A stretch of 64,000 bases of DNA from Candidatus Krumholzibacteriota bacterium (GTDB lineage: Bacteria; Krumholzibacteriota; Krumholzibacteriia; JAJRXK01): positions 160,001-224,000 of the forward strand of contig CAVXTH010000007.1 in assembly GCA_963764625.1 (NCBI GenBank), written 5' to 3'. Position 1 is the first letter of the stretch. Every line of letters starts with the position of its first letter. Below the pieces are notes generated by a model. The model saw nothing but the letters and a program-made list of their open reading frames with translations, made no database searches and was not told where the DNA came from. Below, in pieces: positions 1 through 17,029 of this stretch. The position numbers and the translations under genes were made by a program.

Positions 1-2700
1 GAGACCCGCATCGGCGGTAGTGCGGTGGCGCTTGAAGACGAAGCCCAGGCTGGCCGCCAGGTCGGCATCCTCGCGCGTATCGTTGTCCCAGCTCCACATC
101 CAGGTGGCGGGAGTCGGATCGTAGGTGATCATGAGCTCGGCGCCGGTGGTCTCGCGATTGCCGCGCACCGCGAACGGATCGTCCAGAACGTTGCGAGGAT
201 GCCCGGGGGTGCCCGTCAGGTCGCTCGAATTGGGCATCGGACCCACGATGGGTTTCTGCCACAGGAAGTTGGGTCCGATCTGCCAGTTGCCGAAGCTGGC
301 CGCAACGCCTGAGAGAGCATTGACCTGATTGCCCGAACCGCTGTCCCTCAGCTCCCAGCCGGTGAAAGTGGGAATGGCCGTGGGACCGGCCTCGGCCACC
401 AGGCCCATGTACGCACCCTGTCCGTACCAGTGCCAGCGTCCGTGCTCCCAGGTCAGCTTGCCCTTGAAGCCGAGAGTGTCGTCGCTCTTGATCTTATCCT
501 GCCGCACGTCCTGTGGAGCAATGGGGCCGCCTGCGTCCACCAGACTTTCTTCCACCAGCTGGAAAGTCTCTCCCACGCGCGGATCGCCGGACCAGAGGAA
601 CCCTCCTTCGAAACCGAAGGGTCCGAGTCCGGTCTGCATCTGCAACGAGGCCTTGCGCGTCGATCGAATCGGAATCGCGATGGAGCTCGTGGCCTGCGAA
701 CGCTGGGCGAAGTCGTCCTGATAGAGCCCCGTCCACTGAATGCCGCCCACGGAGCGTTCGTACTTCAAGAAAATGGCCGGGTTGGCTCCCCACCACAGCT
801 GGGGACCCATGGCGAGCTTGAAGCCATTGAAGAACTTCTTGCCCGCCATTTCGAACCCGATCGGAGCTTCCCCGTTGTAGATGTCGAGGTTCTCACCGTA
901 AAACGCGTCGCGGTAGAGGCCGAAGAAGTCTCCCTCGTATTGCCAGTGCAAATGCCCGGTGCGATAAAAGCTGTCGAGCATGAACCAACGGTCATCCCAC
1001 GAGAGATCAGCCTGATACACTTTCACTCGCTCCAGCGACTGGATCTCCACCGGGTTGCCCTGTTCGTCGAGAACTGTCTTGGGACGGCCGCGATTCTCGT
1101 AAAAGATCTCGTCGATCGGGTTCTGGGGTACGTTGCCCAGCACGCTGACGGAGAGCCGGCCCTGAACCGCATCGTTGGGCTGGGCCTGGATGTCCGCGAA
1201 GAACGATTCCCCGTGGTCGAAGCCCAAGAACGACGGATAGGAATCCTGCGGAGACTCGTTGTCGGGGGTGGAGATGTTCTTTCCCCCGGTGCTGTAGGTC
1301 TCCCACTCCAACCGAAGACCCGACACCCGCACTTTGCTCGAAAGATCGCTCTTCAAGCTGGCCGCGTCCCCGCGCGCCTGCAGCACCGCGGCCATGGGCT
1401 GGATCGCATGGAAGTGATCCCGGATGCTCTGAAGATCGGTTCCCGCCGCGTAGGGATCGAGCTTGAACGCATCGCGAAGCGCGTAGTAGGCCGCGCGCGG
1501 GTAGACCTCGTAATAGCCGTTGGGGTCGGGAAAGCCCTTGGCGGTAATTCCCCACCACTCCTCGTTCATGTTGTTGTCGCCCTCGTGGTAATCGAGAGGG
1601 TAACCCGCGTTCGGCCACGAGGCGTTGGTGTCGTGAATGTCGAGGCGGCTGTCCTGCCCAAACTTCCACCAGCCATCGCTCCACTGGAAGATCAGGCCAC
1701 CGATCGCGTTCCCCACGCGTCCCTTGGCGGCCGACTGTTCGTAGATCTCCTCCCACTGGCCGAGCAGGTAATACGCCTGAGCGGCCTGATCCTCTTTCAT
1801 GGTGATGGCATTGAAGGCATCGGAGCCGAACTCGGTGAAGAGAGCCGGGATGCCCAGTTTGTCGTGAACGACCTGGAAGAAGTCGCGGGCCGAGACCCCG
1901 CGGTAGACGTTGGAGCCAAAGATATCGAGCCGCGGGCACTCTTGGGCGACGATGTCGATGTATTGCACGTCTCCGTTGGCGATGGCCACCGGGCGGCTGG
2001 GATCACGCTGCTTGATGTCTTCGATGATCTCGCCGAAGAGGGAGTAGAGGAAGCGCGCGCGCGCCGCGTTCTGTTCGCCCTTGGGCAGAGCTTCGATCTC
2101 GAAGGACGACCAGGAGAGTCCGTAGTTGTTCTCGTTACCCAGAAGCCACATGAGAACCCCGGGAGTTCCCTTGTAGCGGTCCACCACGCTCGCCATTTCG
2201 GCCTTCAGGTAAGCGCGCACCTTGGGATCGCTGTAATTGGTCGATGGCTGCCACACACCGTCGATCGTCACCCCGTAGCGCCCGATGGTGTCGTTGATGA
2301 TGGTGAAGATTCCAAAGTTCTCGTAGATGTACTCGATCCAGCGGGGAGGGATGCCGGGAGCCTGGCGAATCGTATTCACGCCCATGGTGGACAACAGTGG
2401 CATCTCCCGGAAGAGCACTGCTTTGATGAAGTCATCCGGCTTGTTCCAGAAGTCGTAGCTGTAGTTGTATCCGATGGGCAAGTAGCCCCAGTTCATGCCG
2501 AAGACCATGAAATCGCGGCCATCCACTTGAAGCCGGGAGCCGCTCGAGTCGTTCACGGTCTCGATTTCCGGCAAGGCGGCGCCGGCGGTTTCAGCCTGTG
2601 CTTCGACCGGCACCAAGCCCGCCGCCGCAAGCAGGAGAAAGCCAAGGCCCACGACGAACAGGCGGCATTGGTTGGGTCGGCTACTTGGAATCGAATACAC
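1..2700 (-). CDS. Secreted clan GH-A glycoside hydrolase (GH2-TIM/GH158-like) fused to a long C-terminal probable outer-membrane beta-barrel; 3' end runs off the window
   Basis: Translated by hand; absent from the ORF track because it has no stop in the window. GTG at 2700 with GAAGGGGA RBS. Signal peptide (LFVVGLGFLLLAAAGLVPVEAQA), GMNWGYLPIG, MGVNTIRQ, acid/base WLLGNENNYG, nucleophile FTEFGSDAF, FQWSDGWWK. The C-terminal half has alternating aromatic strands. Confidence 0.8.
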   Translation of the reverse strand, partial: MYSIPSSRPNQCRLFVVGLGFLLLAAAGLVPVEAQAETAGAALPEIETVNDSSGSRLQVDGRDFMVFGMNWGYLPIGYNYSYDFWNKPDDFIKAVLFREMPLLSTMGVNTIRQAPGIPPRWIEYIYENFGIFTIINDTIGRYGVTIDGVWQPSTNYSDPKVRAYLKAEMASVVDRYKGTPGVLMWLLGNENNYGLSWSSFEIEALPKGEQNAARARFLYSLFGEIIEDIKQRDPSRPVAIANGDVQYIDIVAQECPRLDIFGSNVYRGVSARDFFQVVHDKLGIPALFTEFGSDAFNAITMKEDQAAQAYYLLGQWEEIYEQSAAKGRVGNAIGGLIFQWSDGWWKFGQDSRLDIHDTNASWPNAGYPLDYHEGDNNMNEEWWGITAKGFPDPNGYYEVYPRAAYYALRDAFKLDPYAAGTDLQSIRDHFHAIQPMAAVLQARGDAASLKSDLSSKVRVSGLRLEWETYSTGGKNISTPDNESPQDSYPSFLGFDHGESFFADIQAQPNDAVQGRLSVSVLGNVPQNPIDEIFYENRGRPKTVLDEQGNPVEIQSLERVKVYQADLSWDDRWFMLDSFYRTGHLHWQYEGDFFGLYRDAFYGENLDIYNGEAPIGFEMAGKKFFNGFKLAMGPQLWWGANPAIFLKYERSVGGIQWTGLYQDDFAQRSQATSSIAIPIRSTRKASLQMQTGLGPFGFEGGFLWSGDPRVGETFQLVEESLVDAGGPIAPQDVRQDKIKSDDTLGFKGKLTWEHGRWHWYGQGAYMGLVAEAGPTAIPTFTGWELRDSGSGNQVNALSGVAASFGNWQIGPNFLWQKPIVGPMPNSSDLTGTPGHPRNVLDDPFAVRGNRETTGAELMITYDPTPATWMWSWDNDTREDADLAASLGFVFKRHRTTADAGL

Positions 2701-4111
2701 GGGAGTCCCCTTCACTCTGAGTGGTAGTGGAGGCATCGGCGATCGCCGCGGGAACCTCGACCACGGTATTGGCCGATACCGCTTCGCGATAGTAGTAGGC
2801 GCTGTCCTTGGGGAGACGTTGCTGCGTGGTGAAATCGACTGAGAAGAGGCCGAACTTCTTCTTGTAACCGAATCCCCATTCGAAATTGTCCAGGAGCGAC
2901 CAGGCGAAATACCCCTTCAGGGGTACGCCGTCCTCGATGGCGCGATGGGCCGCCTTCAGGTGCTCGCGCAAATAATGAACTCGTTTCGCATCGGCGATGC
3001 GATCCAGAGGATCGATAGGGTAGTCGTACGCGGCCCCGTTTTCGGTGACGTAGATCTTGGGTGGTCCATACTCCCGGGAAACGCGCGTCAGACTCTCGTG
3101 GAGACCGCGCGGATAGACTTCCCACCCCATGTCGGTGAGTTCCTCCGAGGGTGCCACCTTCACGGCCACCGGACGTCCATCCTTTTGCGCCTTCATGACC
3201 ACCCGGCTGTAGTAGTTGAGACCCAGGAAATCCAGGGGCGCGGAGATGGCCTCCATGTCGCCCTCGCGAACGAAGGGCAGCTCAGGGCCTTTCAGATGGC
3301 CCGCGCGAACCCGATCGGTCACCGCGTCGGCGGGATAGGAACCCCGGAACAGAGGATCCAGATACCAACGGTGGAAGAAGCCGTCGAACCACCGCGCGGC
3401 GTCGCGATCGCCCGGATCGTCGCTGGCGGGGTGGGCGGGACAGTGGTTCAGCACGATCCCCAGCTCGGCTCGCGGCGTCTCGTCGCGAATCGCCCGGGTC
3501 GCCCAGCCGTGGGAGAGCAGCAGGTGATGCGCCACGCGTAGGGCCTCGGTGGGGTCCACATGGCCCGGGGCGTGATGGCCCTCTTCGTGACCGAGCGTGG
3601 CGATGCACCACGGCTCGTTGTGGGTCACCCAATGTTGTACCCGGTCTCCCAGCCGCCTCGTCACCGCGTCGGCGTACTCCACGAAAGCTTTCGCCGTGTC
3701 GCGCGCACCCCATCCGCCCTGTTCCTGCAGGACCTGAGGGAGGTCCCAGTGGTAGAGCGTGGGGAAGGGCTGGATCTTGGCCTCGAGCAGGGCGTCGACC
3801 AGAGCGTCGTAGAAGTCGAGGCCCGCCCGGTTCCGCGCGCCCCATCCCTTCGGCAGAATTCGCGGCCAGGAGATGGAGAAGCGGTAGGCGTCCAGGCCCA
3901 GCCACTTCATCAGGGCCAGGTCCTCGCGCCAGCGGTGGTAGTGATCGCAGGCCACGTCGGGGGTGGAGCCGTCCTCGATCTTCCCCGCCAGACCGGCGAA
4001 GTGGTCCCAGATGGAGTCGCTTCGCCCGCCTTCGCTTCGCCCACCCTCGATCTGCTGGGCGGACGTGGCGACCCCCCAGAGAAAGCCCTTGGGAAACTCG
4101 AAGCTGGCCAT
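2681..4111 (-). CDS. GH1 beta-glucosidase (cytoplasmic)
   Basis: FPKGFLWGVATSAQQIEG, DHYHRWREDL, YRFSISWPRI, TLYHWDLP, THNEP acid/base, YVTENG nucleophile, WSLLDNFEW. Start reassigned to ATG at 4111. Confidence 0.95.
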   Translation of the reverse strand: MASFEFPKGFLWGVATSAQQIEGGRSEGGRSDSIWDHFAGLAGKIEDGSTPDVACDHYHRWREDLALMKWLGLDAYRFSISWPRILPKGWGARNRAGLDFYDALVDALLEAKIQPFPTLYHWDLPQVLQEQGGWGARDTAKAFVEYADAVTRRLGDRVQHWVTHNEPWCIATLGHEEGHHAPGHVDPTEALRVAHHLLLSHGWATRAIRDETPRAELGIVLNHCPAHPASDDPGDRDAARWFDGFFHRWYLDPLFRGSYPADAVTDRVRAGHLKGPELPFVREGDMEAISAPLDFLGLNYYSRVVMKAQKDGRPVAVKVAPSEELTDMGWEVYPRGLHESLTRVSREYGPPKIYVTENGAAYDYPIDPLDRIADAKRVHYLREHLKAAHRAIEDGVPLKGYFAWSLLDNFEWGFGYKKKFGLFSVDFTTQQRLPKDSAYYYREAVSANTVVEVPAAIADASTTTQSEGDSRVFDSK

Positions 4112-4137
4112 GCGTGCTCCGATTCTCAAAAAAGAAT

Positions 4138-4160
4138 CTTTGTTCGGACTCCGAACATAG
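4138..4160. promoter_or_regulatory. Palindromic operator CTTTGTTCG-N5-CGAACATAG (site 1), overlapping the putative -10 of the GH1 promoter
   Basis: Perfect core TGTTCGGA-C-TCCGAACA. On the minus strand it reads TTGACA-N17-CACTAT-GTTCG. The same motif occurs at 11258 and 11357. Confidence 0.7.
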
Positions 4161-4228
4161 TGTATGATACCACGGGCGCTGTCAAGCCCCCTCTTCCTCA
4201 GAGTTTCTTCGAAAGAGAGGTCACTACA

Positions 4229-5206
4229 ATGCGAAATCTGGTCATCGCCGTCCTGACGGTCGCGGCACTTTTCTGTCCGCTCGTGGCCACGGCACAACCC
4301 CTGGCTTCCTATACCCAGGACTTCGAAGGCCTGGTGCAGACAGACGTGAACGCTCTGGCCAACGACGGCTGGCTCGTCTACGGCAACGTCTTCGACACGG
4401 ACGGTACCAGCTACCTGTACGGCTACGGTGCCTTTCCCGCCCCCAACACCGGCGCCGCATTCTGTCAGATCGTCATCGGCGAGGGTGGTCTAGAGCAGGG
4501 AGCGCAGCAGCTCGTCGTCTTCAGCGACTACGAGAACACCGATCACGCACTCGGCCACTATATCGAGTCCAACGTCTACCACGAGGAGAAAGTCGGTGCC
4601 GAGAACGTCGGTGAATCCTGGGTCTTCGAATTCGATTCGAAGCGCGGCAATCTGACGGGAAGCTCCACCGCCTTGGCCTTCATCAAGACCCTCGATCCCA
4701 GCAACGGCTACGCCCTGACCAACTTCATCACGGTGGACATGACGACGAGTCCCACCACCTGGAATCACTACTCGCTGTCCATCTCGATCGATGCGTCGCT
4801 GGAGGGTCAGTTGCTGCAGTTCGGCTACTCGAACACCGCCACGCTGTACGAAAGTGCGGGGATCTTCTACGACAACATCACCTTCCACCCGGATAATGCG
4901 ACGGGTAGCACGCCGGCTCGTTCCATGGTCGATGCCACCTTGCGGCAAAACTACCCGAATCCCTTCAATCCCAGCACCCGCATCGAATTCAGCCTGAATC
5001 AGGCGCAAAGCGTTGATTTGGCGGTCTTCGATCTGGCGGGTCGCCGTGTGGCCACGCTGGTGCGCGGCGCGCTCGAGAGCGGAGAGCATGCGGTGAACTG
5101 GAACGGTAGGAGCGACAACGGAGCTGCGGTGGCTTCGGGACGATACAACTACGTGCTGAGGACGCAGCACGGACAGCTGTCGGGAAGCATGACCTTGCTG
5201 AAGTAG
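4229..5206 (+). CDS. Secreted protein: ~200-aa beta-sandwich-like domain plus FlgD/T9SS-type C-terminal domain
   Basis: GAGAGG RBS, signal peptide MRNLVIAVLTVAALFCPLVATA, C-terminal NYPNPFNP...VFDLAGRRVATL...WNG...VASGRY...MTLLK. The core is paralogous to 10409..11143. Confidence 0.85.
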   Translation: MRNLVIAVLTVAALFCPLVATAQPLASYTQDFEGLVQTDVNALANDGWLVYGNVFDTDGTSYLYGYGAFPAPNTGAAFCQIVIGEGGLEQGAQQLVVFSDYENTDHALGHYIESNVYHEEKVGAENVGESWVFEFDSKRGNLTGSSTALAFIKTLDPSNGYALTNFITVDMTTSPTTWNHYSLSISIDASLEGQLLQFGYSNTATLYESAGIFYDNITFHPDNATGSTPARSMVDATLRQNYPNPFNPSTRIEFSLNQAQSVDLAVFDLAGRRVATLVRGALESGEHAVNWNGRSDNGAAVASGRYNYVLRTQHGQLSGSMTLLK

Positions 5207-5233
5207 AGCCTTTTTCTCGACGAGCGGTACAAC

Positions 5234-8200
5234 ATGAAGACCAAGTCCAGTCTCAACCCGGTCTCTCCATCGACCGAGGAGTTGCCCGGGATTCCCGTCG
5301 GTGAGTTCGTCTGTCTGGAGGGGGAGAAGTACTACCGGATCTCCGCGTACGATCGTCTGGATCCCTTCCTGATGAGCGTGCCGAGCGATACGGATCTGTG
5401 GATGTTCGTGACTTCTGGTGGAGGTCTCACGGCCGGTCGGGTCGACGCGGACGGGAGTCTCTTTCCCTACCGTACCGTCGACCAGCTCCACGATGCGCAC
5501 CACCATACCGGGCCGCTGAGTTCGATCCAGCTGGAAAAGGCGAGCGGCGAGTGCGTGCGCTGGGATCCCTTCGCCGAAGATGGCGCCGAGAATCCCCGGA
5601 TCGAGTGGAATCTCTACAAGAACACCATCGGGAACCGCTTGGTGTTCGAGGAGATCAACCACGAGCTCGCTCTCGCGTTTCGGTACCGGTGGTCGGCGTG
5701 TGACGAATTCGGCTGGGTACGCAGCGCGACTCTGGAAAACCGCTCGCCTCTGGTGGCGCGGGTGACGCTTCTGGACGGGCTGAGGAACATCCTGCCCTAT
5801 GGAGCGCCTCTCTCGCTCTACCAGCAGTCGAGCAACCTGGTCGACGCCTACAAGAAGTCCGAAGTGGATCCGGAGACGGGGCTCGGCATCTATTCCCTTA
5901 CCGCGCAGATCACCGATCGGGCGGAGGCGCTCGAGATGCTCAAAGCCAATACGGTGTGGTGCTGTGGTCTGGAAAGATTCAAGGTCCATCTCTCTCTCGA
6001 CGCGGTGAAGTGCTTTCACGCGCGAAAACTACTGACCGAAGATAGGGTGACGAACGGAATTCGCGGCAACTACCTGGTGAGTTGCGCAGTGGAATTGCAG
6101 CCGAAGGAGAGTGCCCGCTGGCACATCGTGGGCGACACCGGTCGCGATCAGATACAGATTGCCGCTCTGCGGAAGAGATTGCTCGAGGAAGACGATCTGA
6201 GTGGGCTGATCGAGGAGAAGCTCCAGCTGGCGGGAGAGAATTTGCGCCGAAACGTGGCCAGCGCGGATGGGTTGCAGTTTTCGGAGTTGGAAGAGACCTG
6301 GGTTCACCACTTCACGAACGTGCTGTTCAACAACATGCGCGGCGGGGTGTTCCTGTACAACTACACCCTTCCCATGCCGGACTTCCGGGATTTCCTCCGC
6401 GTCCACGATCCCGCTGTACTTCGGCGAAGGCGGGCCGAGTTGGATCGGCTCCCGGAGATCTGCGAGCTGGACCAGGTTCATGCCGCGGCTCAGCGGTCGG
6501 CAGATCCCGACCTTCAACGGTTGAGCTACGAGTATCTTCCCCTCTACTTCGGACGGCGGCACGGCGATCCCAGCCGCCCCTGGAACGGCTTCTCCATCCG
6601 CACCCGAAACGAGGCAGGCGAGGAGAGGCTGAATTTCGAGGGGAATTGGCGCGACATCTTCCAGAACTGGGAAGCTCTCGGCACCGCCTTTCCCGGCTTC
6701 CTTTCCAGCATGGTAGCCAAGTTCGTCAACGCCTCGACGGTGGACGGGTTCAACCCGTACCGCATCACTCGCGACGGGGTGGACTGGGAGACCGTCGTCC
6801 CGAATGACCCGTGGAGCAACATCGGGTACTGGGGCGATCATCAGATCATCTACCTGTTGAAGCTTCTCGAGTCTTTGGATCGCCACGAGCCGGCGGCGCT
6901 CCACGAGCTGCTCGAACGGGAGATCTTCAGCTACGCCGAAGTTCCCTATCGCATCAAGCCGTACGAGGAGATTCTGAGGAACCCCCGTTCGACCATCGAT
7001 TTCGATCATGCGCGCGCGCGCGACATCGAGGAGAGGGTCCAGCGCGCGGGTACCGACGGAAAGCTCCTTCACGATTCGGACGGATCGGTCTACCACGCGA
7101 ATCTGTTCGAGAAGTTGCTGGTGCCGGCTCTCTCGAAGCTATCGAACCTGGTCCTCGATGCCGGCATCTGGATGAACACCCAGAGACCCGAGTGGAACGA
7201 CGCGAACAACGCGCTCGGTGGGGGCGGAGTCTCCGTGGTGACTCTGTGTCACCTGCGCCGCTACCTGGCCTTTCTCACCGGGCGGTTCGAAGCGAGCACG
7301 GCAAAAGAGTATCCCGTGTCGAGGGAAGTCGCCGATTGGTTGAACTCGATCGAGAGCATCCTGGGCCAGGAGCGGGATTTGCTCACACGCGAACATCCCG
7401 GGGGACGGGATCGAAAGCGGATGATGGATGCCCTCGGGGAGGCGTTCTCGGTCTATCGGCAGGGGGTGTATGCCCACGGATTCTCGGGCAAGACTCCGGT
7501 TGCGGTACGGCGGGTCGTGGAACTTTGTACGACCGCGCTGGAGTTCATCGACCACGGCATTGGCGCCAACCGCCGCCAGGACGGGCTCTTCCACACCTAC
7601 AACCTGCTGGACTTCGCGCCGGATGAGAGCAGCGCCGAAGTGAAGCGTCTGCCGGTCATGCTCGAGGGGCAGGTCGCCATCCTGAGTTCTGGATTCCTCC
7701 GGCCGCAGGAAGCGCTCGAAGTCCTGGAGCGGCTCTTCGCCAGCGCCCTCTACCAGCCAAGCCAGCGCAGCTTTTTTCTCTACCCCGAGAGGGAAGTGCC
7801 GGGCTTCATGGCGAAGAACGTGGTTCCGAGAGAGAGTGTGGAGGAGATCCCTCTCTTGAGGGAACTACTTGCGCAAAAGGACCACTCGGTGCTGGGGGAG
7901 GACGCCGAAGGCGTGCTTCGCTTCTGTGGCGAGTTCAAGAACGCACTGGATGTGAGCGTGGCCCTGGACGAGTTGAAGGAGCGAGAGGAATGGGCGGGTG
8001 CGGTGCAGCGGGACCGTCCCGCCACGCTCGAACTCTTCGAAGGGGTCTTCCACCACGAGTCCTACACCGGTCGCTCCGGAGTGATGTTCGGCTACGAGGG
8101 CCTGGGGTGCATCTACTGGCACATGATCGCTAAACTGCTCCTGGCGGTGCAGGAGACGATCTTTCGCGCCTTTGACGACGACGCGCCGCCGGCGGTGCGC

Positions 8201-8734
8201 GAGGCTCTCACCGCCATGTACTTCAGGGTCCGTGCCGGGCTCGGATACGAGAAATCCGTAGCCGAATTCGGCGCGTTTCCTACCGATCCCTACTCGCACA
8301 CCCCGGCGGCGGGAGGCGCGAAGCAGCCGGGCATGACCGGTCAGGTGAAGGAGGAAATCCTCACCCGGCAGGGCGAACTCGGGATCAGGGTCGAACACGG
8401 GCGCGTTCGCGTTCGGCCCCTTCTCCTGCGCAGTGAGGAGTTCCTGGCCCAGCCCAAGGTCTTCCACTATTTCGACGTCTCGGGAACAGCGCGTTCGATC
8501 ACCTTGTGTACCGACAGTTTGGCCTTCACCTTTTGTCAGGTGCCGGTGATCCTGCAGCGCACCGCGGAGAAGACGCGAATCGAGGTATGCTTCGAGAACG
8601 GAACGTCCTCTTTGGCGCAAGGCGATACGCTCTCGGCCGAGCTGAGCGCGGAGCTCTTTTCGCGCAGTGGACGCATCGAGAAGATCTCGGTCAAGATTCC
8701 GGACCACGAACTTAGCCCACACGAGCGGAGATGA
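5234..8734 (+). CDS. GH149-type beta-1,3-glucan phosphorylase
   Basis: 1166 aa, no signal peptide. Motifs PFLMSVPSDTDLWMF, YLPLYFGRRHGDPSRPWN, EGNWRDIFQNWEAL, DGFNPYRIT, IGYWGDHQIIYL, YEGLGCIYWHM, AFPTDPYSHTP, QPGMTGQVKEE, recognised from memory as GH149. Confidence 0.85.
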   Translation: MKTKSSLNPVSPSTEELPGIPVGEFVCLEGEKYYRISAYDRLDPFLMSVPSDTDLWMFVTSGGGLTAGRVDADGSLFPYRTVDQLHDAHHHTGPLSSIQLEKASGECVRWDPFAEDGAENPRIEWNLYKNTIGNRLVFEEINHELALAFRYRWSACDEFGWVRSATLENRSPLVARVTLLDGLRNILPYGAPLSLYQQSSNLVDAYKKSEVDPETGLGIYSLTAQITDRAEALEMLKANTVWCCGLERFKVHLSLDAVKCFHARKLLTEDRVTNGIRGNYLVSCAVELQPKESARWHIVGDTGRDQIQIAALRKRLLEEDDLSGLIEEKLQLAGENLRRNVASADGLQFSELEETWVHHFTNVLFNNMRGGVFLYNYTLPMPDFRDFLRVHDPAVLRRRRAELDRLPEICELDQVHAAAQRSADPDLQRLSYEYLPLYFGRRHGDPSRPWNGFSIRTRNEAGEERLNFEGNWRDIFQNWEALGTAFPGFLSSMVAKFVNASTVDGFNPYRITRDGVDWETVVPNDPWSNIGYWGDHQIIYLLKLLESLDRHEPAALHELLEREIFSYAEVPYRIKPYEEILRNPRSTIDFDHARARDIEERVQRAGTDGKLLHDSDGSVYHANLFEKLLVPALSKLSNLVLDAGIWMNTQRPEWNDANNALGGGGVSVVTLCHLRRYLAFLTGRFEASTAKEYPVSREVADWLNSIESILGQERDLLTREHPGGRDRKRMMDALGEAFSVYRQGVYAHGFSGKTPVAVRRVVELCTTALEFIDHGIGANRRQDGLFHTYNLLDFAPDESSAEVKRLPVMLEGQVAILSSGFLRPQEALEVLERLFASALYQPSQRSFFLYPEREVPGFMAKNVVPRESVEEIPLLRELLAQKDHSVLGEDAEGVLRFCGEFKNALDVSVALDELKEREEWAGAVQRDRPATLELFEGVFHHESYTGRSGVMFGYEGLGCIYWHMIAKLLLAVQETIFRAFDDDAPPAVREALTAMYFRVRAGLGYEKSVAEFGAFPTDPYSHTPAAGGAKQPGMTGQVKEEILTRQGELGIRVEHGRVRVRPLLLRSEEFLAQPKVFHYFDVSGTARSITLCTDSLAFTFCQVPVILQRTAEKTRIEVCFENGTSSLAQGDTLSAELSAELFSRSGRIEKISVKIPDHELSPHERR

Positions 8735-10350
8735 CGATGCATCCCAAGAACCTGCTTCCCACTCTGGCGTTTCTGGCCTGCTTTGGCCTGCTTGCTCCCG
8801 TCTCGGCCAGTGCGCAGTGCATTTTGGCCAACCCCAGTTTCGAGTTGTCCGGATCGGGAGGGCAGACTTTCGGGGGCTGGAATCAGTTCGGGGTGGTCGG
8901 TTCGACGAACCTCGCCACTCACGGCTCCAAAGCGGCCCGGGTCTCTGGCCCGAACTACGGTGGCTGGGACGTGTCGGCCTACTGGCAGGCTCAGGATTGC
9001 GTTCCCGGTGAGCAGTGGGAGATCACCGGCCACGTCAGGATTCCCTCGAGCAAGCCCTTGATCGGGAGCTGCGTGGCCCTGGTGAATGTCGAGTGGCGCG
9101 ATTCGGGAGGGACCCTGATCGACTACGACTCCTTCACCGTTGCGGACGCTTCGTCGCCCACCGACACCTATCTCGATTTCGATTTGACCAGTAGCGCTGC
9201 TCCAACCGGAACCGCCTCCACGCGTCTCCTGCTCGGGGTTCTTCAGAGCCCGAGCGATCCTTCTCCCGATGTCTACTACGACCAGGTCACCTTTTTCAGC
9301 ACCTCTCCTCCAACCATCGACGACCAGCAGTGGAACGATTTCCCGGGGGGACGAACGGTCAGTTTCGGCGGATACACCTGGCGCGTCAAAGGCCCGGGAT
9401 TTTACGGACCCGGAGCCAATCTGTTTTGCGATTCCTCCGACTGCGTCTGGGTGGACTCGAGCAATCAGCTCCATCTCACCCTGCAGAATCGCAGTGGGTC
9501 GTGGTACAGCACCGAGGTCGTCAACGAACAGGCTCTGGGATACGGAGACTACATTCTGACGACGGTCGGCCGCCTGGACCTCATCGACCCCCAGGCCGTT
9601 CTCGGCATCTTCCTGTGGCAGTATGGACCGTGCTGGGACGACGCCTACCTGTGGTGGAATCCGTACAACGAGATCGACGTCGAGTACAGCCGTTGGCAGA
9701 ATCCGGGCGCAGACATCGCCCAGTTCGTCGCCCAACCCTTCGACTACCCGGGCAATCTGGTTCGCTTCGACGCGAGCTTCGCGCCGGGCGAGGTGGTCAG
9801 CCATGCCATGCGGTGGCTTTCGGACAGTGTCGAATACAGAGTGTGGCGCGGGGGTCCGAACGACGAATCACCGGCGAACCTCATTTACTCCTGGACCTAC
9901 ACCGGTCCGCACATTCCCCGCCCCGAGCAGCCACGGATGCACCTGAATCTGTGGAGAATCGACGGCGTGCCGGCCTCGAACCAAGAAGTGATCTTCCAGG
10001 ATTTCACCTACGTGCCCGAGGGAGGCCCGACCGCAGTCGAGGACGGCGGGGTGGCGCGAATTCCCTCGGTATCGGGCGGCCATCTCTACCCCGCGGTGCC
10101 GAATCCCTTCAATCCATCCACCACCATCCGCTTCGACCTGGCCCGGACCGGCTACGCGAGTCTCGAGGTCTACGACCTCAGCGGCCGGCACGTGCGGACC
10201 CTCGACAGCGGTTACCTGAGCGCGGGGCAGCACTGGGCGCTGTGGAACGGGCAGGACGAGCATGGCAAGACGGTGGCTTCTGGCGTGTACTTCCTGCGGC
10301 TGTCGGGCCAGGACTTCGTGAAGACCCAGCGAGTGGCCCTCATCAAATAG
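8731..10350 (+). CDS. Secreted GH16-like glucanase with N-terminal CBM-like domain and FlgD/T9SS-type C-terminal domain
   Basis: Signal peptide; NPSFE...YYDQV CBM-like jelly roll; catalytic NEIDVEYSRW (ExDxE); PNPFNP C-terminal domain ending QRVALIK; overlaps the GH149 stop (ATGA). Confidence 0.8.
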   Translation: MTMHPKNLLPTLAFLACFGLLAPVSASAQCILANPSFELSGSGGQTFGGWNQFGVVGSTNLATHGSKAARVSGPNYGGWDVSAYWQAQDCVPGEQWEITGHVRIPSSKPLIGSCVALVNVEWRDSGGTLIDYDSFTVADASSPTDTYLDFDLTSSAAPTGTASTRLLLGVLQSPSDPSPDVYYDQVTFFSTSPPTIDDQQWNDFPGGRTVSFGGYTWRVKGPGFYGPGANLFCDSSDCVWVDSSNQLHLTLQNRSGSWYSTEVVNEQALGYGDYILTTVGRLDLIDPQAVLGIFLWQYGPCWDDAYLWWNPYNEIDVEYSRWQNPGADIAQFVAQPFDYPGNLVRFDASFAPGEVVSHAMRWLSDSVEYRVWRGGPNDESPANLIYSWTYTGPHIPRPEQPRMHLNLWRIDGVPASNQEVIFQDFTYVPEGGPTAVEDGGVARIPSVSGGHLYPAVPNPFNPSTTIRFDLARTGYASLEVYDLSGRHVRTLDSGYLSAGQHWALWNGQDEHGKTVASGVYFLRLSGQDFVKTQRVALIK

Positions 10351-10380
10351 AAAGGGCCCGGATTTCCGGGCCCCTCCTTC
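10351..10380. terminator. Hairpin between convergent genes
   Basis: GGGCCCGGA-TT-TCCGGGCCC immediately after the stop at 10350. Confidence 0.6.
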
Positions 10381-10408
10381 GCTGGAATGAACTTTCCAGA
10401 ATCTTCGT

Positions 10409-11143
10409 CTAGTGGAAGAGAGCCTTCACTTTGCCGAAGCTCGATTCCTGCGCCGAAATCGCGCCGTCCATGAAGAAGCTCACGTTGTCGTAGAAGGTTC
10501 CCGAGGCCTCGAAGTTCGTGGCCCGATTCGAGAAGCCAAACTGCAGAATCTGGCCGGCCAGGCTCGGGACGATATCGATCGACAGCGCGTAATCACCCCA
10601 AGTCGCGGGGATGGATGTCATGTCTACCGTGATGAAATTCGTCGTCGCATAGCCGTTACCGGGATCCAGGGTCTTGATGAAGGCCAGAGCCGTCGAGGCT
10701 CCCGCCAGGTCACCGTGTTTGGCCTGGAAGGTGAAGAACCATTTTCCGCCAACGTCACCCGCAGCGATCGTCTGCTCGTGAAAGACATTGGACTCGACGA
10801 TATTTCCCGCGTTGTGCGCGTCGGCATTGTTGTAGTCGCTGAACACGACCAGTTGTTGGGCTCCCTGGGCCGCGCCGCCCTCCCCGGCCGCGATCGTACA
10901 GAACGCGTAGGGGGGACCGCTGTTGGGTGCCGGAAAGGCGCCATAGCCGCCGATATACGTGACGCCGTCTGGAGCAAAGACATTGCCGTAGACCAGCCAG
11001 CCATCGGCGCCAAGAGCGCCCGTGTCCGTCTGCCCGAGGGTCTCGAAATCCTGGCCGTACCCGCTTAGCTGAGCGCTCGCCATCACCGGCATCAGGCAGA
11101 TCAGCAGGGCGGCCGCAAAGATCGCAGTAGCTCGATTGGTCAT
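10409..11143 (-). CDS. Secreted protein, paralog of 4229..5206, ending in the short SFGKVKALFH tail
   Basis: GAGAGGA RBS and signal peptide. Shares DGWLVYGNVF, GYGAFPAPN, QGAQQLVVFSDY, STALAFIKTLDP and TNFITVDMT with 4229..5206. Confidence 0.85.
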   Translation of the reverse strand: MTNRATAIFAAALLICLMPVMASAQLSGYGQDFETLGQTDTGALGADGWLVYGNVFAPDGVTYIGGYGAFPAPNSGPPYAFCTIAAGEGGAAQGAQQLVVFSDYNNADAHNAGNIVESNVFHEQTIAAGDVGGKWFFTFQAKHGDLAGASTALAFIKTLDPGNGYATTNFITVDMTSIPATWGDYALSIDIVPSLAGQILQFGFSNRATNFEASGTFYDNVSFFMDGAISAQESSFGKVKALFH

Positions 11144-11257
11144 CTCATTGTCCTCTCGTTATTGAGATCTGAAGTTCTTGCTACCGAAAAAGCACTCGGA
11201 ATCGGAGCCGTCTCGCCCAGCGGCATGCGTGGCTGATTCCAGTACGATCAGTCTATA

Positions 11258-11280
11258 CTATGTTCGGTAACCGAATCAAG
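11258..11280. promoter_or_regulatory. Operator site 2 (CTATGTTCG-N5-CGAATCAAG)
   Basis: Imperfect copy of the site 1/3 palindrome in the divergent intergenic region. On the minus strand it overlaps a TTGATT...TAGACT promoter-like pair. Confidence 0.55.
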
Positions 11281-11356
11281 TCCTAGATTGACGGCAGGGC
11301 GCAAGATAGGGCAGGGTGGGCCAGAATTCTGTTGACCCCCTTGTCGCGAGCGGATA

Positions 11357-11379
11357 CTTTGTTCGTAGTTCGAACAAAG
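11357..11379. promoter_or_regulatory. Operator site 3 (CTTTGTTCG-N5-CGAACAAAG), overlapping the putative -10 of the MFS promoter
   Basis: Perfect 9-bp inverted repeat. TTGACC (11332)-N17-TACTTT overlaps its left arm. Confidence 0.75.
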
Positions 11380-11434
11380 ATCTAGCTCTCTGGGGAAGGT
11401 CAGGGAAGCGCAAGCCCGCAAACGAGATGGCCTG

Positions 11435-12916
11435 ATGAATCCTGCCGTCCATTCCAGAACTGCGCCCGAGGATCGAGTCCGCTTCCCCCACCGGCTGGCC
11501 TACGGGGCTGGCGCCTTCGTCAATAATCTCCTGGCCGCGGCCAGTGGCGGGATGATGATCGTCCTGAACCTGGGACTCGGGATGAACCCCGGGCTGGTGG
11601 GTCTCTTGGGGGCTCTGCCCCGGCTGACCGACGCCTTCACCGATCCCCTCATGGGGTACATTTCGGACAACACCCATACGCGGTGGGGGCGCCGGCGTCC
11701 CTACATCTTCTGGGGCGCCATCGCGGCCGGGATCATCTTCGCTTTGCTGTGGCAGCTCCCCCGCGATCGAAGCCAGGCCTTCTACTTCATCTTCTTCCTC
11801 GTGGGATCGATTCTCTTCTACGGCGGGTACACGGTCTTCGCCACGCCCTGGGTCGCTCTCGGCTATGAGCTCACGCCCGACTACAACGAGCGAACTCGTC
11901 TGATGGGCACGCAGAACTTCATCGGTCAGCTCGCCTATGTGGTCTCCCCTTGGTTTCTCTGGATCATGAACTCGGGAAAATTCTTCCCGGATCAGGTTTC
12001 CGGAGCGGCCGGACTGGCCATCATCGTGGCGGTGGTGGCCATCGGATTGGGTATTCTGCCAGCGATTTTTCTGCGCGAGCGCATGCAGAGTTTGGCGGCG
12101 GAGGAGATGGAGGTCTCCAAGGCAGCCGGGAAAGGCGAGGAGCGGGCTCTCAAGCACAACCTCAGAGAGTTCTTCAAGGGATTCAAGGTCACGCTGTCGA
12201 ATGGGCCCTTCCTGAAGCTGTGTATGGCTACCTTCCTGGTGTTCAACGGCTTCATGCTCATCGCCTCGTTCCAATACTACGTGATCATCTACTACGTGTG
12301 CGGTGGCGACCAGACCGCCGGCGCCAAGTACGCCGGCTTGGCCGGCACCGTGGGCGCGGTGTGCACCTTCGCCGTGGTCGCGTTCGTCACCTGGCTCGGC
12401 ACCAGGATCGGAAAGCGCCACACCTTCTTCTTGGCCATCGGTCTCTCCATCATCGGTTACGGTCTGAAGTGGGTCTGCTACAACCCGAACGTGCCGCTGT
12501 TGGTGGTGCTTCCCGCGCCGCTAATGGCTTTCGGCTTGGGCGGTCTGTTCACTCTGGTTCCATCCATGATCGCCGACGTGGTGGACACGGACGAACTCAC
12601 GACGCACGAACGGCGTGAGGGAATGTTCGGCTCGATCTTCTGGTGGATGGTGAAACTGGGAATGGCAGCGGCACTGGCCGGCGGTGGCTATCTGCTCAAT
12701 GCCACCGGCTTCGAGGTCGACCTGGGGGGGAACCAGGCGCACCATTCCATCATTCTTCTGCGGCTGTGCGACGCGGGGATCCCCATGGTCACCTCAGCCC
12801 TGGCGATCTGGGCCGTGGCCAAGTTCCCGATTTCCGAGGCGAAAGCCCTCGAGGTGCGCCAGGAACTCGAACGCCGTAGAGGGCGGCCGGTGGCGGCCGA
12901 TGCGATGGGGAGTTGA
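11435..12916 (+). CDS. GPH-family (MelB-like) MFS sugar:cation symporter
   Basis: About 12 TM segments; RLTDAFTDPLMGYISDNTHTRWGRRRPYI, ELTPDYNERTRL, SMIADVVD...RREGMF. Confidence 0.9.
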   Translation: MNPAVHSRTAPEDRVRFPHRLAYGAGAFVNNLLAAASGGMMIVLNLGLGMNPGLVGLLGALPRLTDAFTDPLMGYISDNTHTRWGRRRPYIFWGAIAAGIIFALLWQLPRDRSQAFYFIFFLVGSILFYGGYTVFATPWVALGYELTPDYNERTRLMGTQNFIGQLAYVVSPWFLWIMNSGKFFPDQVSGAAGLAIIVAVVAIGLGILPAIFLRERMQSLAAEEMEVSKAAGKGEERALKHNLREFFKGFKVTLSNGPFLKLCMATFLVFNGFMLIASFQYYVIIYYVCGGDQTAGAKYAGLAGTVGAVCTFAVVAFVTWLGTRIGKRHTFFLAIGLSIIGYGLKWVCYNPNVPLLVVLPAPLMAFGLGGLFTLVPSMIADVVDTDELTTHERREGMFGSIFWWMVKLGMAAALAGGGYLLNATGFEVDLGGNQAHHSIILLRLCDAGIPMVTSALAIWAVAKFPISEAKALEVRQELERRRGRPVAADAMGS

Positions 12917-13929
12917 GTTCCATGCAGCTTCGCTCCGGCGTGGCTATCCTGCTCTTGGGCTCGATCTTGGCCCTCTTCGTGACCGGGATCGCGGGCTCTT
13001 TGGGCCCAGCTCACGCTGAGTCTCGCTCCCCCGGAGAGGAGATTTTCGCAGTGCGTCCCCTGCGGTTGGAAGAAAACGGCACCTGGATCGGAAACGCAAT
13101 CTGCTACAGCCCCTATCGAGACGGTCAGCGCCCGGGGGGCGCTACTCCCACCCCGGCTCAACTCCGCGAAGACTTGCGCTTGATGCTTCCGCACTGGAAA
13201 CTGCTGCGTACTTATGGAGCTTCCGGCTTTGCCGAGAACCTGCTCGAGCTGATTCGCGCCGACGATTTGGAAATGAAAGTGATGCTCGGCGTGTGGATCG
13301 CATCCGAGGATACCGCTCTGAATCGACGCGAAGTCGATGCAGCGGTACGCTTGGCAAACGCATTCCCCAATATCGTTCTCGCGGTTTGCGTCAGCAACGA
13401 GACTCAGGTCTCTTGGTCGTACAATCGGATCCCAGCCAGCGAGTTGATCGAGTATGTGCGTCGCGTGCGCGCAAGAGTTGCGGCACCGGTAACGGTGGCC
13501 GACGACCTCAAATACTGGAACAAGCCGGAGAGTCGCAAAGTTGCGGCTGAAATCGATTTCATCACCTTGCACGCGCACCCCCTGTGGAACGGAATCCTTT
13601 TGCCCGACGCCCTCTCGTGGCTGCAGGAGCAGGTGGAGGCGGTGCAGGCCATGCATCCCGAGCGGGAGATCGTGCTCGGCGAGACGGGTTGGGCTACCGC
13701 CTATTCCGACGAGGGCGAGCAGGGTGCGTTGATCAAAGGCCAGACCGGCGAGAGCGAGCAGAAACTGTTCTACCAGGCCACTCGGAGATGGGCCGAGACG
13801 AAGAAACTGCCCATATTCACCTTCGAGGCCTTCGACGAAAACTGGAAGGGCGGTACGGACCCGACCGAGGTGGAGAAGCACTGGGGTCTGTTTCGTGCCG
13901 ACCGATCGGCGAAAATGGCACTTCGTTGA
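12913..13929 (+). CDS. GH17 beta-1,3-glucanase/glucosidase with signal peptide or anchor
   Basis: AICYSPYRDGQ, LRTYG, VMLGVWI, VSNE, LGETGW, FEAFDENWK, EKHWGLF. The start may be ATG at 12922. Confidence 0.88.
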   Translation: MSSMQLRSGVAILLLGSILALFVTGIAGSLGPAHAESRSPGEEIFAVRPLRLEENGTWIGNAICYSPYRDGQRPGGATPTPAQLREDLRLMLPHWKLLRTYGASGFAENLLELIRADDLEMKVMLGVWIASEDTALNRREVDAAVRLANAFPNIVLAVCVSNETQVSWSYNRIPASELIEYVRRVRARVAAPVTVADDLKYWNKPESRKVAAEIDFITLHAHPLWNGILLPDALSWLQEQVEAVQAMHPEREIVLGETGWATAYSDEGEQGALIKGQTGESEQKLFYQATRRWAETKKLPIFTFEAFDENWKGGTDPTEVEKHWGLFRADRSAKMALR

Positions 13930-14800: not shown

Positions 14801-17029
14801 ATGGTCCCCAGCCATGAGCACCGCGCTATCACTTGTTTCTTCCTGTTTCTGTTCCTGATCATTGCTTCCATCGCGAATGCGGCAGACACCACTCTGCAAA
14901 ACGATGGTTTCTACGCAGGAGCGGGAGTCGGCTTCCAAGGTGGTTTCGTTACCGGCGAGATCGGCGCGTCGCGCTTCACTCCGCCCGGTTCCGTCCAGCT
15001 CAAGCAGGTACTCTTTCTGTTCGGAGGGGCCGGCGGTTCAGCGACGATCACTCTGCACATTTGGGACGATTCGGCCCTGAGACCAATCTCCGGCGTTGAA
15101 CTCTACAGCAACGACTATCTCCTCACCCCCTCGGATACCGATCTCCAACAGATCGATTTGAGCGGAGAGAGCATCTACGTCTCGGGGCCTTTTCGGGTGG
15201 GCATCCAGTTTCAGCAGGACGGGTACCCCTCCATTGCGCGCGATGACGACGGAACGATCACGTCCTCGTTGAACTACATCAACGCGAGCGGTCTGGGATG
15301 GTATCAATCGTCTCTCTTGGGATTGACCGGAGACTGGATCATCCGGGCCGTGGTTGGAACCGCACCCGCATCCTACACCGTCGGCGGTACGGTCAGCGGA
15401 TTGAACGGCATTCTAGTGTTGCAAAACAATGGGGGAGACGACCTGGTGATCAGCGGCGACGGCGCCTTCTCTTTCGCAACGCCTCTTACTGACGGCAGCA
15501 GCTACGAAGTGACCGTACTCTCCGCTCCAGCCAATCAGAACTGTGTGGTGAGCATGGGGACGGGAACCATCTCCGGGTCGAACGTGACCAACGTCTCCGT
15601 GAGCTGCAGCGATAAGCCGACGACAGTGCAGGTATTGCAACACGATAGCTTCATCCCCGGTCAGAACGCGGGTTTTCAGGCCGGATTTGTGGCCAACGAG
15701 ATCGCTGCGGTTCGTTTCACTCCGCCTGGTCTAGTTCATCTCGAAGCGGTACGATTTCTCTTTGGAGGAGCGTCAGGACTCACCTCGATTCGTTTGCACG
15801 TATGGGATGACGCCGCGGAAACGGATGATCCCGGCACCGAACTCTTGGCTCAGGATTACCTCATCGATGCTTCGGACGTCGCGCTCCAGGAGATCGATCT
15901 CGGTTCGCAGGGCCTCCAGCTCACGGGACCGTTCCGGGTGGGGGTCGAGCTTCTCGCGGCGGGTCTGCCATCGGTGGCGAGGGACGATGACGGCAACATC
16001 GACAGCGCGGTCAATTTCATTCTGGGCCAAAGCATCGGCTGGGTGAAGTCGAGTACGGTGGGTCTCACCGGCGACTGGATCTTGCGGGCGATTGTGAGTC
16101 TCGCTTCATCGTTCCCGGAACCCATCATCTTGGCAGTGGATGACATCGGCAACGATCAAGGGGGACAAGTACGTCTGAGCTTTCAGAGCTCGAGCCAGGA
16201 TGCTCTGGGAGCCACGCAGCCGGTGCTGAGCTATGAGGCCTATCGCCGCATCGACTCGCTGCCCTTCGGAGCCATCGCTGGGGTCTCCGCCAAAAAGCTA
16301 GCGGGCTGGGAATACGTGGGTGCGGTTCCGGCGCACGGTGAAACCGAGTACAACATGATCGTGCCCACCCTGGCCGATTCCACCATCAGCCAGGGAATGC
16401 ACTGGTCGGTGTTCTTCGTTCGGGCCGCGACCGCCTCGCCAACGATTTTCTACGATGCGGCGCCCGATTCCGGCTGGTCGCTGGACAACCTGGCACCGAG
16501 CGCGCCCAACAATCTCGTGTTGAACGCGGCGCAGCTCGATTGGACTCCCGCGGCCGAATCGGATTTCGACTACTACAGGGTGTACGGTTCCTCGACCGGA
16601 GCCCTCGACGGGTCAGAGATGCTACTGGGCGCCACGAGCGCGAACTCGTATTCCGTTTCAGGCAGCCCCCAGCCGTATTATCTGGTGACCGTTGTCGATT
16701 TCGCGGGGAACGAAGGCGAGGCTTCCGCGGTGCAGAATACCGCCACCGGGGTCGAGAACGTGCCCCCCCGCGATTTGTGGGTGCGCGTGAGTCCCAACCC
16801 CTTCAACCCGGCCACCTCGATTCGCTTCTACTTGCCCGAAGCGGCGCCGGTCAGTCTGCGGGTCTATGACCAGAGGGGGCGGCTGGTGGACACGCTCTTG
16901 CGGTCACAACCGTTTCCGCAAGGGGAACACCTCGTGCCCTATCGAAGCGAACTGCCGAGCGGAGTCTATTTGCTGAAGCTGATCAGTGCGAATCAAAGCC
17001 AGACGGCTAAGATCAGTCTGGTGCGTTGA
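14801..17029 (+). CDS. Secreted modular protein: duplicated ~160-aa domain, Ig-like domain, FN3-like domain, PNPFNP C-terminal domain
   Basis: Signal peptide; two copies of LQxD...GFQxGFV..EI...RFTPPG...ARDDDG...GLTGDWIxRAxV; YTVGGTVSGL..LVLQNNGGDDL Ig repeat; DIGNDQGGQVRL; DNLAPSAP; PNPFNP...KISLVR. Confidence 0.85.
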   Translation: MVPSHEHRAITCFFLFLFLIIASIANAADTTLQNDGFYAGAGVGFQGGFVTGEIGASRFTPPGSVQLKQVLFLFGGAGGSATITLHIWDDSALRPISGVELYSNDYLLTPSDTDLQQIDLSGESIYVSGPFRVGIQFQQDGYPSIARDDDGTITSSLNYINASGLGWYQSSLLGLTGDWIIRAVVGTAPASYTVGGTVSGLNGILVLQNNGGDDLVISGDGAFSFATPLTDGSSYEVTVLSAPANQNCVVSMGTGTISGSNVTNVSVSCSDKPTTVQVLQHDSFIPGQNAGFQAGFVANEIAAVRFTPPGLVHLEAVRFLFGGASGLTSIRLHVWDDAAETDDPGTELLAQDYLIDASDVALQEIDLGSQGLQLTGPFRVGVELLAAGLPSVARDDDGNIDSAVNFILGQSIGWVKSSTVGLTGDWILRAIVSLASSFPEPIILAVDDIGNDQGGQVRLSFQSSSQDALGATQPVLSYEAYRRIDSLPFGAIAGVSAKKLAGWEYVGAVPAHGETEYNMIVPTLADSTISQGMHWSVFFVRAATASPTIFYDAAPDSGWSLDNLAPSAPNNLVLNAAQLDWTPAAESDFDYYRVYGSSTGALDGSEMLLGATSANSYSVSGSPQPYYLVTVVDFAGNEGEASAVQNTATGVENVPPRDLWVRVSPNPFNPATSIRFYLPEAAPVSLRVYDQRGRLVDTLLRSQPFPQGEHLVPYRSELPSGVYLLKLISANQSQTAKISLVR

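Follow-up and report, generated by a model that had tools for sequence, protein, structure and literature searches.

In a 64,000-nucleotide stretch of a Candidatus Krumholzibacteriota genome (hereafter the window; assembly GCA_963764625.1, contig CAVXTH010000007.1, positions 160,001 to 224,000 of the forward strand), two genes that we call A and B encode paralogous exported proteins that share a core and then end differently. Protein A ends in a C-terminal domain (CTD) of the type IX secretion system (T9SS), and protein B ends in a 16-residue tag that recurs, strictly at the C-terminus, on unrelated exported proteins of the same genome. This tag is probably an undescribed protein-sorting or anchoring signal. 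The reading that we favour, with a probability of roughly 55%, is that the two paralogs carry different address modules, A being directed to the T9SS while the tag of B serves as a second sorting or anchoring signal.

Gene A (325 aa; window positions 4229..5206, + strand) encodes a signal peptide (residues 1-23, 4229-4297), a core resembling a carbohydrate-binding module (CBM) that runs to residue ~221 (position 4891), a low-confidence linker, and a FlgD-Ig-like T9SS type-A CTD (residues 236-325, 4934-5203) followed by the stop codon. The open frame extends upstream to 3560, but position 4229 is the methionine that opens the signal peptide, and it is the sensible start because the upstream part of the frame overlaps a glycoside hydrolase family 1 (GH1) gene on the opposite strand. 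Gene B (244 aa; 10409..11143, − strand) encodes a signal peptide (residues 1-25), a CBM-like core (residues 26-225, 10469-11068) and a tail (residues 226-244) that contains the tag, ISAQESSFGKVKALFH (residues 229-244, 10412..10459, − strand), with K240 as its conserved lysine. The earlier note on this DNA, made from the letters alone, had described closely aligning cores that diverge after FYDN(I/V)(T/S)F, and pairwise BLASTP bears this out: 139 of 229 aligned residues are identical (61%, E 3e-87), and the alignment, which starts at the signal peptides, goes no further than FYDNITFHPDNA in A and FYDNVSFFMDGA in B, with the split just past this motif. Beyond the core, A continues for ~100 residues that include PNPFNP, whereas B has only 19, ending SSFGKVKALFH (final letters ...GAISAQESSFGKVKALFH). 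The end point of the alignment, together with the C-termini of homologs described below, places the two tails in the same slot on the same core, as the note had proposed.

To describe the tail of B beyond this single protein, we searched all six-frame open reading frames (ORFs) of at least 80 aa in the same genome (hereafter G000; Krumholzibacteriota, 3.57 Mb in 9 contigs, 96% complete). About 40 ORFs carry the motif [VI]-P/A-A/T-x3-[ST]-[WF]-G-x-[LVIM]-K-[AS]-x-[FYW]-x(0-4)-end, strictly at the C-terminus. A strict pattern gave 21 matches, of which 17 lie no more than 5 residues from the stop; with the looser pattern [WFY]G.[VILM]K..[FYW], 41 of 50 matches lie 0-4 residues from the stop, where 2.7% would be expected (binomial p ~5e-56), and three internal matches of the looser pattern correspond to the GAFTGA region in sigma-54 activators. 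With W-G as the anchor of the alignment, the 41 tails read in order V/I, P/A, A/T, three polar residues, S/T, W/F, G, any residue, L/V, K, A/S, any residue and F/Y/W; V or I stands at -7 in 35 of them, S or T precedes W/F in 37, and 0-4 residues follow the final aromatic in 40. The conserved tag therefore extends beyond the ten-residue SFGKVKALFH stretch that was first noticed.

The proteins that carry the tag are small (~150-400 aa after the predicted start) and have diverse bodies. With their tails removed, the 17 strict-motif proteins fall into 13 groups without mutual BLAST similarity, and the Pfam domains found among tag proteins include DUF4114, Temptin_C, fn3 (on a lipoprotein), beta-helix/NosD, LTD (lamin-tail) and MopE-type domains. 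A signal-peptide heuristic was passed by 36 of the 42 ORFs in which the motif lies no more than 9 residues from the end, and two look like lipoproteins. The tag is thus modular, and it is confined to exported proteins and, as shown below, to certain phyla.

No Pfam or NCBIfam family matches the tail of B at E up to 0.1, and no tail model from these collections matches the other tag proteins. The hydrophobic residues of the tag (W, V/L, L and F/Y) are spaced at i, i+3, i+6 and i+7, which, for a segment predicted to form a short helix, suggests an amphipathic one. Three known kinds of C-terminal signal were considered for this tail and rejected. It is not a T9SS CTD: although it occupies the slot of such a domain on the same core, it matches no CTD model, extends only 19 residues past the core, and its 16-residue tag is predicted to be helical and could not form an Ig-like domain. 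It is not a PEP-CTERM-type signal, as GAISAQESSFGKVKALFH has neither a hydrophobic stretch nor an arginine cluster and no NCBIfam model matches it. Nor is it the beta-signal of an outer membrane protein, since the core is a soluble jelly-roll, the tail is predicted to be helical and its hydrophobic residues do not alternate.

The shared core is, by structure prediction, a CBM-like beta-jelly-roll. The AlphaFold2 (AF2) model of B, built on a 50-sequence alignment, has a mean predicted local distance difference test score (pLDDT) of 90.5 and a beta-sandwich spanning residues 29-225; past residue 225 it shows a stretch without secondary structure and a short helix (236-241), the last two ten-residue blocks having mean pLDDT values of 72 and 70. 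The model of A (mean pLDDT 71.5) repeats this core and continues, past a low-confidence linker, into an all-beta domain (residues 236-323). Foldseek matched the core to solved structures of CBM16, CBM61, CBM22 and CBM4 with probability 1.00 and E values of 8e-6 to 1e-4, with a partial structural overlap (TM-scores 0.3-0.6). Among CBM-type modules (CBM16, CBM22, CBM4/9, CBM61 and the DUF642/HpiC1-like group), the core is similar in its predicted fold and its glycan-utilisation setting; it differs in lying outside the sequence families and in its partial overlap, and its glycan binding is putative. No Pfam or NCBIfam family matches the core, and hence sequence places it in no curated CBM family. 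Feature neighbours of B in the ESM Atlas include DUF642/HpiC1-like and 'choice-of-anchor C' clusters (0.86-0.90), which we take as a lead only.

To learn what else fills the slot, we tabulated the C-termini of core homologs. A word-indexed search gave 983 proteins at E up to 1e-5, and we classified the best 120, B included, by tail: of the 119 besides B, 100 end in the tag, 17 in a CTD and 2 in another short tail. The last two, P0040 and P0062, end ...NQPVPVELMSFSIE, neither tag nor CTD, and represent either another short tail or truncated records. Some of the 100 are variants with S, T or A in place of G, or F, M or L in place of W. Across the 101 tag-type tails (these 100 and B), the lysine is kept in 100, V or I at -11 in 92 and S or T before W/F in 98, and W stands 13-14 residues past the core in 99; K varies less than the W, G and L positions. 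A reading of B as a shortened or decayed copy of a gene with a CTD, its tail being meaningless read-through, would account for B being shorter than A and lacking a recognised domain past the core, but we give it almost no credence given a tail conserved position by position in 100 homolog clusters at fixed core spacing, recurring on unrelated proteins, on a gene that keeps its own syntenic position across phyla.

An exhaustive search of 50%-identity representatives returned 622 proteins (E up to 0.001). Sorted by regular expression, the best 150 comprise 6 with the tag, 5 with an NPF-type CTD, 9 with PEP-CTERM-like tails, 2 with other transmembrane tails, 97 unclassified, and 31 that stop no more than 12 residues past the last core strand (4-9 in the rows inspected). 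By eye, two more of the 150 have CTD-like ends, and the unclassified ones include further tails composed of VPxxA, a transmembrane segment and arginines, at least 14 dockerin-like repeat tails, and multidomain proteins. Because many homologs end right at the core, the core evidently folds without a tail; together with the linker and lower-confidence helix in the AF2 model, this places the short tail outside the predicted core fold. Tag, CTD, PEP-CTERM-like and dockerin-like tails all stand in the same slot, which, judged from these sequences, is a general site for anchoring modules. Two further families that carry the tag were inspected. In one, unrelated to the core, 7 of 8 members have the tag and the most distant member has a PEP-CTERM-like tail (VPAP, transmembrane segment, arginines); in the other, 28 of 30 have the tag and the remaining 2 have neither tag nor recognisable anchor, so that this family offers no alternative anchor.

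The pair formed by A and B is not peculiar to this window. In a scan that covered each species by one genome, 302 out of 354 candidate stretches were confirmed; the best 80 yielded 72 loci, in records titled Krumholzibacteriota, Eisenbacteria/Eiseniibacteriota, Latescibacterota, 'uncultured Fibrobacteraceae', unnamed bacteria and, once, Phycisphaerales. Complete core copies in these loci comprise 47 of the tag type and 33 of the CTD type, and the lone Phycisphaerales copy ends in a transmembrane segment plus an arginine tail. The tag motif lies 0-5 residues from the stop in 37 of 38 matches in the 72 loci. A GH2-like gene lies within 6 kb of 19/33 CTD-type copies versus 1/47 tag-type copies, and a major facilitator superfamily (MFS) or GH17 gene lies near 38/47 tag-type versus 13/33 CTD-type copies. 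Tail type tracks gene position in a conserved locus, with the GH2-like gene beside CTD-type copies and MFS/GH17 beside tag-type copies. Both types occur in a single locus in 8 of the 72, and on the same contig in 5 further pairs of loci. By these comparisons, the CTD/tag pair and its locus are conserved across phyla.

How often the tails were exchanged is a separate question. Similarity between the two kinds of paralog core is about as high as similarity within each kind (~70-75%), and free core trees intermix the tail types with low support, the CTD label changing 4 times in a FastTree tree of 121 rows and 9-10 times in a quick IQ-TREE tree of 83 rows. However, when the 34 CTD rows of the genome-derived set were constrained to one clade, the log-likelihood rose 21.4 above that of the free quick tree (approximately unbiased test, p-AU 0.669). 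Because the single-clade tree fits better than the free tree, we dropped the idea of repeated swapping, and a single ancient duplication with one tail exchange is not rejected. One ancient split would explain the genome-derived set and would fit the synteny. One protein, P0053, is a candidate for a possible later exchange or gene conversion, since its core shares 79% identity with a tag-type protein but 66% with the CTD-type protein that it matches best.

In the tail of A we recognise an ordinary T9SS type-A CTD in its FlgD-Ig-like form. It matches PF13860 (FlgD_ig) at 42.8 bits (cut-off 27) and TIGR04183 at 23.7 bits, barely above the cut-off of 23; its score against PF18962, 20.3 bits, is below the cut-off of 27. 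These matches substantiate the PNPFNP domain described in the earlier note, and a CTD is identified in A only. Its placement at the extreme C-terminus, its length of ~90 aa and its predicted all-beta structure (residues 236-325; strands only, at 236-323, in blocks with pLDDT 84-89) are those of such domains, and G000 encodes SprA (236.8 bits, cut-off 200) as well as PorU-like and PorV-like genes, which are adjacent. The PorU-like match (G000:C6:500978-504381) falls into pieces in three distinct open frames (585, 479 and 592 aa), which may reflect a split gene, a frameshift or an assembly error. G000 also has an exosortase (PF09721, 157.9 bits; G000:C6:746339-748091) beside a weak PorV-family match, and it may thus have a third sorting system.

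To delimit the range of the tag, we searched genomes with a DNA pattern encoding W-G-x-h-K-x-x-[FY] and a stop, separated by 0-3 bases (no in-frame codon or a single one), with the reversed pattern as control. Hits numbered 23 in G000, 37 in G001 (Eisenbacteria), 45 in G002 (Latescibacterota), 59 in G004 and 0 in G003 (Phycisphaerales), with no control hit in any of the five. In the phylum of G000, all 61 sampled genomes (40 genera) had hits, 2-68 each against 0-3 for the control, whereas 41 Planctomycetota had 0-3 each against up to 5 for the control, which is background level. G004, the genome of locus L024, groups with the own-phylum sample, and its record label 'uncultured Fibrobacteraceae' therefore looks doubtful. 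The codons of the matched tags differ at synonymous positions, which indicates that selection acts on the tag peptide.

Taken together, the tag is distributed as known sorting signals are: it is terminal, sits on exported proteins with many different cores, occurs in dozens of copies per genome, is limited to certain lineages and is interchangeable with known anchors. From this we infer that it is an address, and we propose the following for its destination and recognition. A and B would be old paralogs of one exported CBM-like module in a conserved beta-1,3-glucan locus, each with a different address module behind its last core strand. A would be exported by Sec and then, most likely, pass the T9SS translocon to the cell surface or medium. 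B would be exported by Sec, and its tag would then be recognised by an envelope receptor or enzyme through the near-invariant lysine and the nearby free carboxyl end; the same glucan-binding module would thereby be held in a second place. In the arrangement we prefer, A would work outside the cell and B would be retained or docked in the envelope next to the sugar symporter of the locus. The suggestion in the earlier note that the two modules are alternative addresses is well supported as the logic of the slot (the same slot, and a tag on at least 13 unrelated cores), but its division into a released and a surface-attached form is a guess. Non-covalent docking, covalent attachment at the lysine and a T9SS-linked route are three versions of the proposal that our analysis cannot separate.

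Several observations weigh against this reading. To our knowledge, a tail with neither CTD nor transmembrane segment has no route across the outer membrane, and 'address' could therefore mean mere retention in the periplasm. The signal-peptide heuristic is home-made and passed at least one false positive, a polytopic membrane protein, and AF2 confidence in the tag helix is only moderate. On the side of the machinery, the PorU-like and PorV-like genes score below their equivalog cut-offs (277.9 vs 420 and 105.4 vs 250 bits), and models for GldM and PorP found no match in G000, although their controls gave none either. The correlation of tag and machinery comes from five genomes, which include no T9SS-positive lineage without the tag (such as Bacteroidota). 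Gene neighbourhoods in G000 identified no receptor, sortase or other machinery for the tag: within 5 kb of 25 tag loci lie CTD proteins at 10, Pkinase-PD40 proteins at 6 and PorV/Q-family barrels at 2, and these enrichments are weak, a rough Poisson estimate by hand giving marginal p values of ~0.02-0.04 for the CTD and Pkinase-PD40 proteins. The genome has ~36 paralogs of Ser/Thr kinases or PD40 beta-propeller proteins.

Of the alternatives, the one that survives best, although we consider it unlikely, is that the tag is a minimal T9SS-linked peptide whose docking site is a PorV/PorQ-family barrel or a partner protein with a CTD, so that tag proteins reach the surface, or stay there, with T9SS cargo. 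Consistent with this, SprA scores above cut-off in all four tag-rich genomes, each of which also has 8-12 PorV/Q-family matches, and neither is found in the tag-free Phycisphaerales genome G003; this co-occurrence, however, comes from five genomes of related lineages. The CTD genes near 10 of the 25 tag loci also fit, as does one apparent operon (L016, G000:C9:80000-93000; 5817-12731, − strand) that encodes a 1101-aa protein without family match, a PorV/PorQ-family barrel (NF033709, 166.9 bits), a glucoamylase-like CTD protein and a tag protein. Against it, PorV/Q-family genes are near only 2 of the 25 loci, and we know of no T9SS signal this short. Moreover, a tag-plus-CTD junction (the tag, then N-P-F 7-17 residues on) has 0 matches in the five genomes, and no internal tag precedes a CTD in G000 or in the 72 loci.

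Somewhat more doubtful is a more specific form of the address idea, in which the tag is the substrate site of a covalent anchoring enzyme, a transpeptidase acting at the near-invariant lysine and releasing a leaving group of 3-8 residues. Candidate enzymes are a clan-CD C25 paralog of PorU or an L,D-transpeptidase of the kind that acts on Braun lipoprotein. Clan-CD transpeptidases release short leaving groups, and Braun lipoprotein (Lpp) is tied to peptidoglycan by its C-terminal lysine. The retention of K in 100 of 101 tails beside more variable W, G and L positions would suit such an enzyme, as would the 0-4 residues past the aromatic in 40 of the 41 tags of G000. The tag-rich genomes have several C25 paralogs, in G000 besides the PorU-like gene, and one locus (L012, G000:C6:42000-56000; 6085-13211) has a pair of tag genes immediately upstream of a Propeptide_C25-like gene (17.5 bits, short of the cut-off of 22) and a Peptidase_C25-CTD gene. 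The latter encodes a 1072-aa PorU-like paralog with a CTD that scores below the PorU and PorU2 cut-offs. However, this adjacency was seen at a single tag locus and is absent from the other C25 loci compared by eye, NCBIfam models for PorU2 and PorV2 had no match above cut-off in the five genomes, and PorU acts outside the outer membrane, where tag proteins have no known way of arriving.

Less probable again is that the tail is no address at all, and instead a functional or regulatory appendage, such as a C-terminal degron, a signal for processing by a tail-specific protease of the periplasm, or a peptide for oligomerisation or for covering a ligand site. PDZ-type recognition by C-terminal processing proteases typically makes the same strict demand for a position near the end, and the short helix predicted by AF2 could pack on a partner or on the core. 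Against this, the tail stands exactly where homologs have CTD, PEP-CTERM-like or dockerin-like modules, it occurs on at least 13 unrelated folds, and, in the manner of known sorting signals, it is restricted to certain phyla and present dozens of times per genome.

The favoured reading, that of two address modules on one core, places the tag beside several known systems. Like the signals of the PEP-CTERM/exosortase system (VPxxA-type, IPTL-CTERM), the tag is short, C-terminal, present on many unrelated exported proteins in dozens per genome, and limited to certain lineages; it begins V-P-A/T and is interchangeable with other anchors on one core, PEP-CTERM-like tails included. Unlike them, it has no transmembrane helix or basic cluster, and exosortase does not track it, being present in 2 of the 5 genomes tested, G000 and G003. 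In G003, which has no tag hits, the core homolog ends in the transmembrane plus arginine tail mentioned above. The 'choice-of-anchor' families of NCBIfam likewise combine one extracytoplasmic domain with alternative C-terminal sorting signals, but neither A nor B matches such a model, and the SWG-type tail is not among the anchors modelled in Pfam or NCBIfam. A dockerin is also a small C-terminal module that tethers non-covalently, and dockerin-like repeats, identified by eye, fill the same slot in homologs; a dockerin, however, is a ~60-aa calcium-binding domain with a cohesin partner, whereas the tag has 16 residues and no known partner. The CTD of A is ordinary and the swap follows 'choice-of-anchor' logic; what is new is the short tail, of which we found no description in Pfam, in NCBIfam release 20 or in the literature searched (which excluded supplements and subscription journals).

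The genes around A and B point to beta-1,3-glucan (laminarin-type) utilisation. In order, the window holds a GH2-type TIM-barrel protein (1..2736, − strand; PF02836, 25.4 bits, cut-off 21) that runs off its start; the GH1 beta-glucosidase (2684..4297, − strand; PF00232, E 5.5e-159), whose true start is probably internal to the ORF; A; a GH149 beta-1,3-glucan phosphorylase (5234..8734, + strand; NF058639, 1495 bits, cut-off 1150) with no signal peptide evident in its translation; and a 539-aa exported protein with a T9SS type-A/FlgD_ig CTD (8731..10350, + strand), whose N-terminal part has no family match and contains an EIDVE motif that may resemble GH16. B follows, with a GPH/MFS_2 sugar:cation symporter transcribed divergently from it (11435..12916, + strand; PF13347, E 2.5e-64; TIGR00792, 179.7 bits, below the cut-off of 231). 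Next come a GH17-like protein with a hydrophobic N-terminus (12913..13929, + strand; PF00332, 39.3 bits, cut-off 28.2), a 742-aa exported protein with a T9SS type-A CTD (14801..17029, + strand; TIGR04183, 35.7 bits; PF18962, 27.1 bits) that scores 23.9 bits against choice_anch_R, below the cut-off of 30, and a sigma-54 activator.

Three further genes lie downstream. A 105-aa ORF (20474-20791, − strand) with a MopE-type motif (PF11617, E 1.1e-10) ends ...SSWGMLKGQF and is the second tag-bearing ORF of the window; it is negative by the signal-peptide heuristic, and its start may be miscalled. A 420-aa protein (22211-23473, + strand) combines Dockerin_1 with a FlgD_ig/T9SS CTD, two anchoring-type modules in one protein, and a 929-aa protein (23522-26308, − strand) has multihaem cytochrome c domains (c7, c3, paired CXXCH) fused to a cytochrome b561-type membrane domain.

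Each of the C-terminal sorting signals LPXTG, PEP-CTERM and T9SS CTD opened the way to a dedicated machinery and to the rule-based prediction of surface proteomes. More tentatively than the favoured reading, and at somewhat worse than even odds, we propose that the tag is the signal of an undiscovered envelope sorting pathway, parallel to the T9SS, in Krumholzibacteriota, Eisenbacteria, Latescibacterota and neighbouring uncultured phyla. Such a pathway would handle dozens of small binding modules per genome and could take the form of a transpeptidase acting at the lysine or of a dedicated PorV/Q-family receptor. With one core and two tails, A and B offer a controlled comparison for where each tail sends its protein, and if the pathway exists, the conserved pair would be a natural two-address experiment. 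It bears on how uncultured FCB-group (Fibrobacteres-Chlorobi-Bacteroidetes) bacteria may arrange glucan capture on both sides of the outer membrane.

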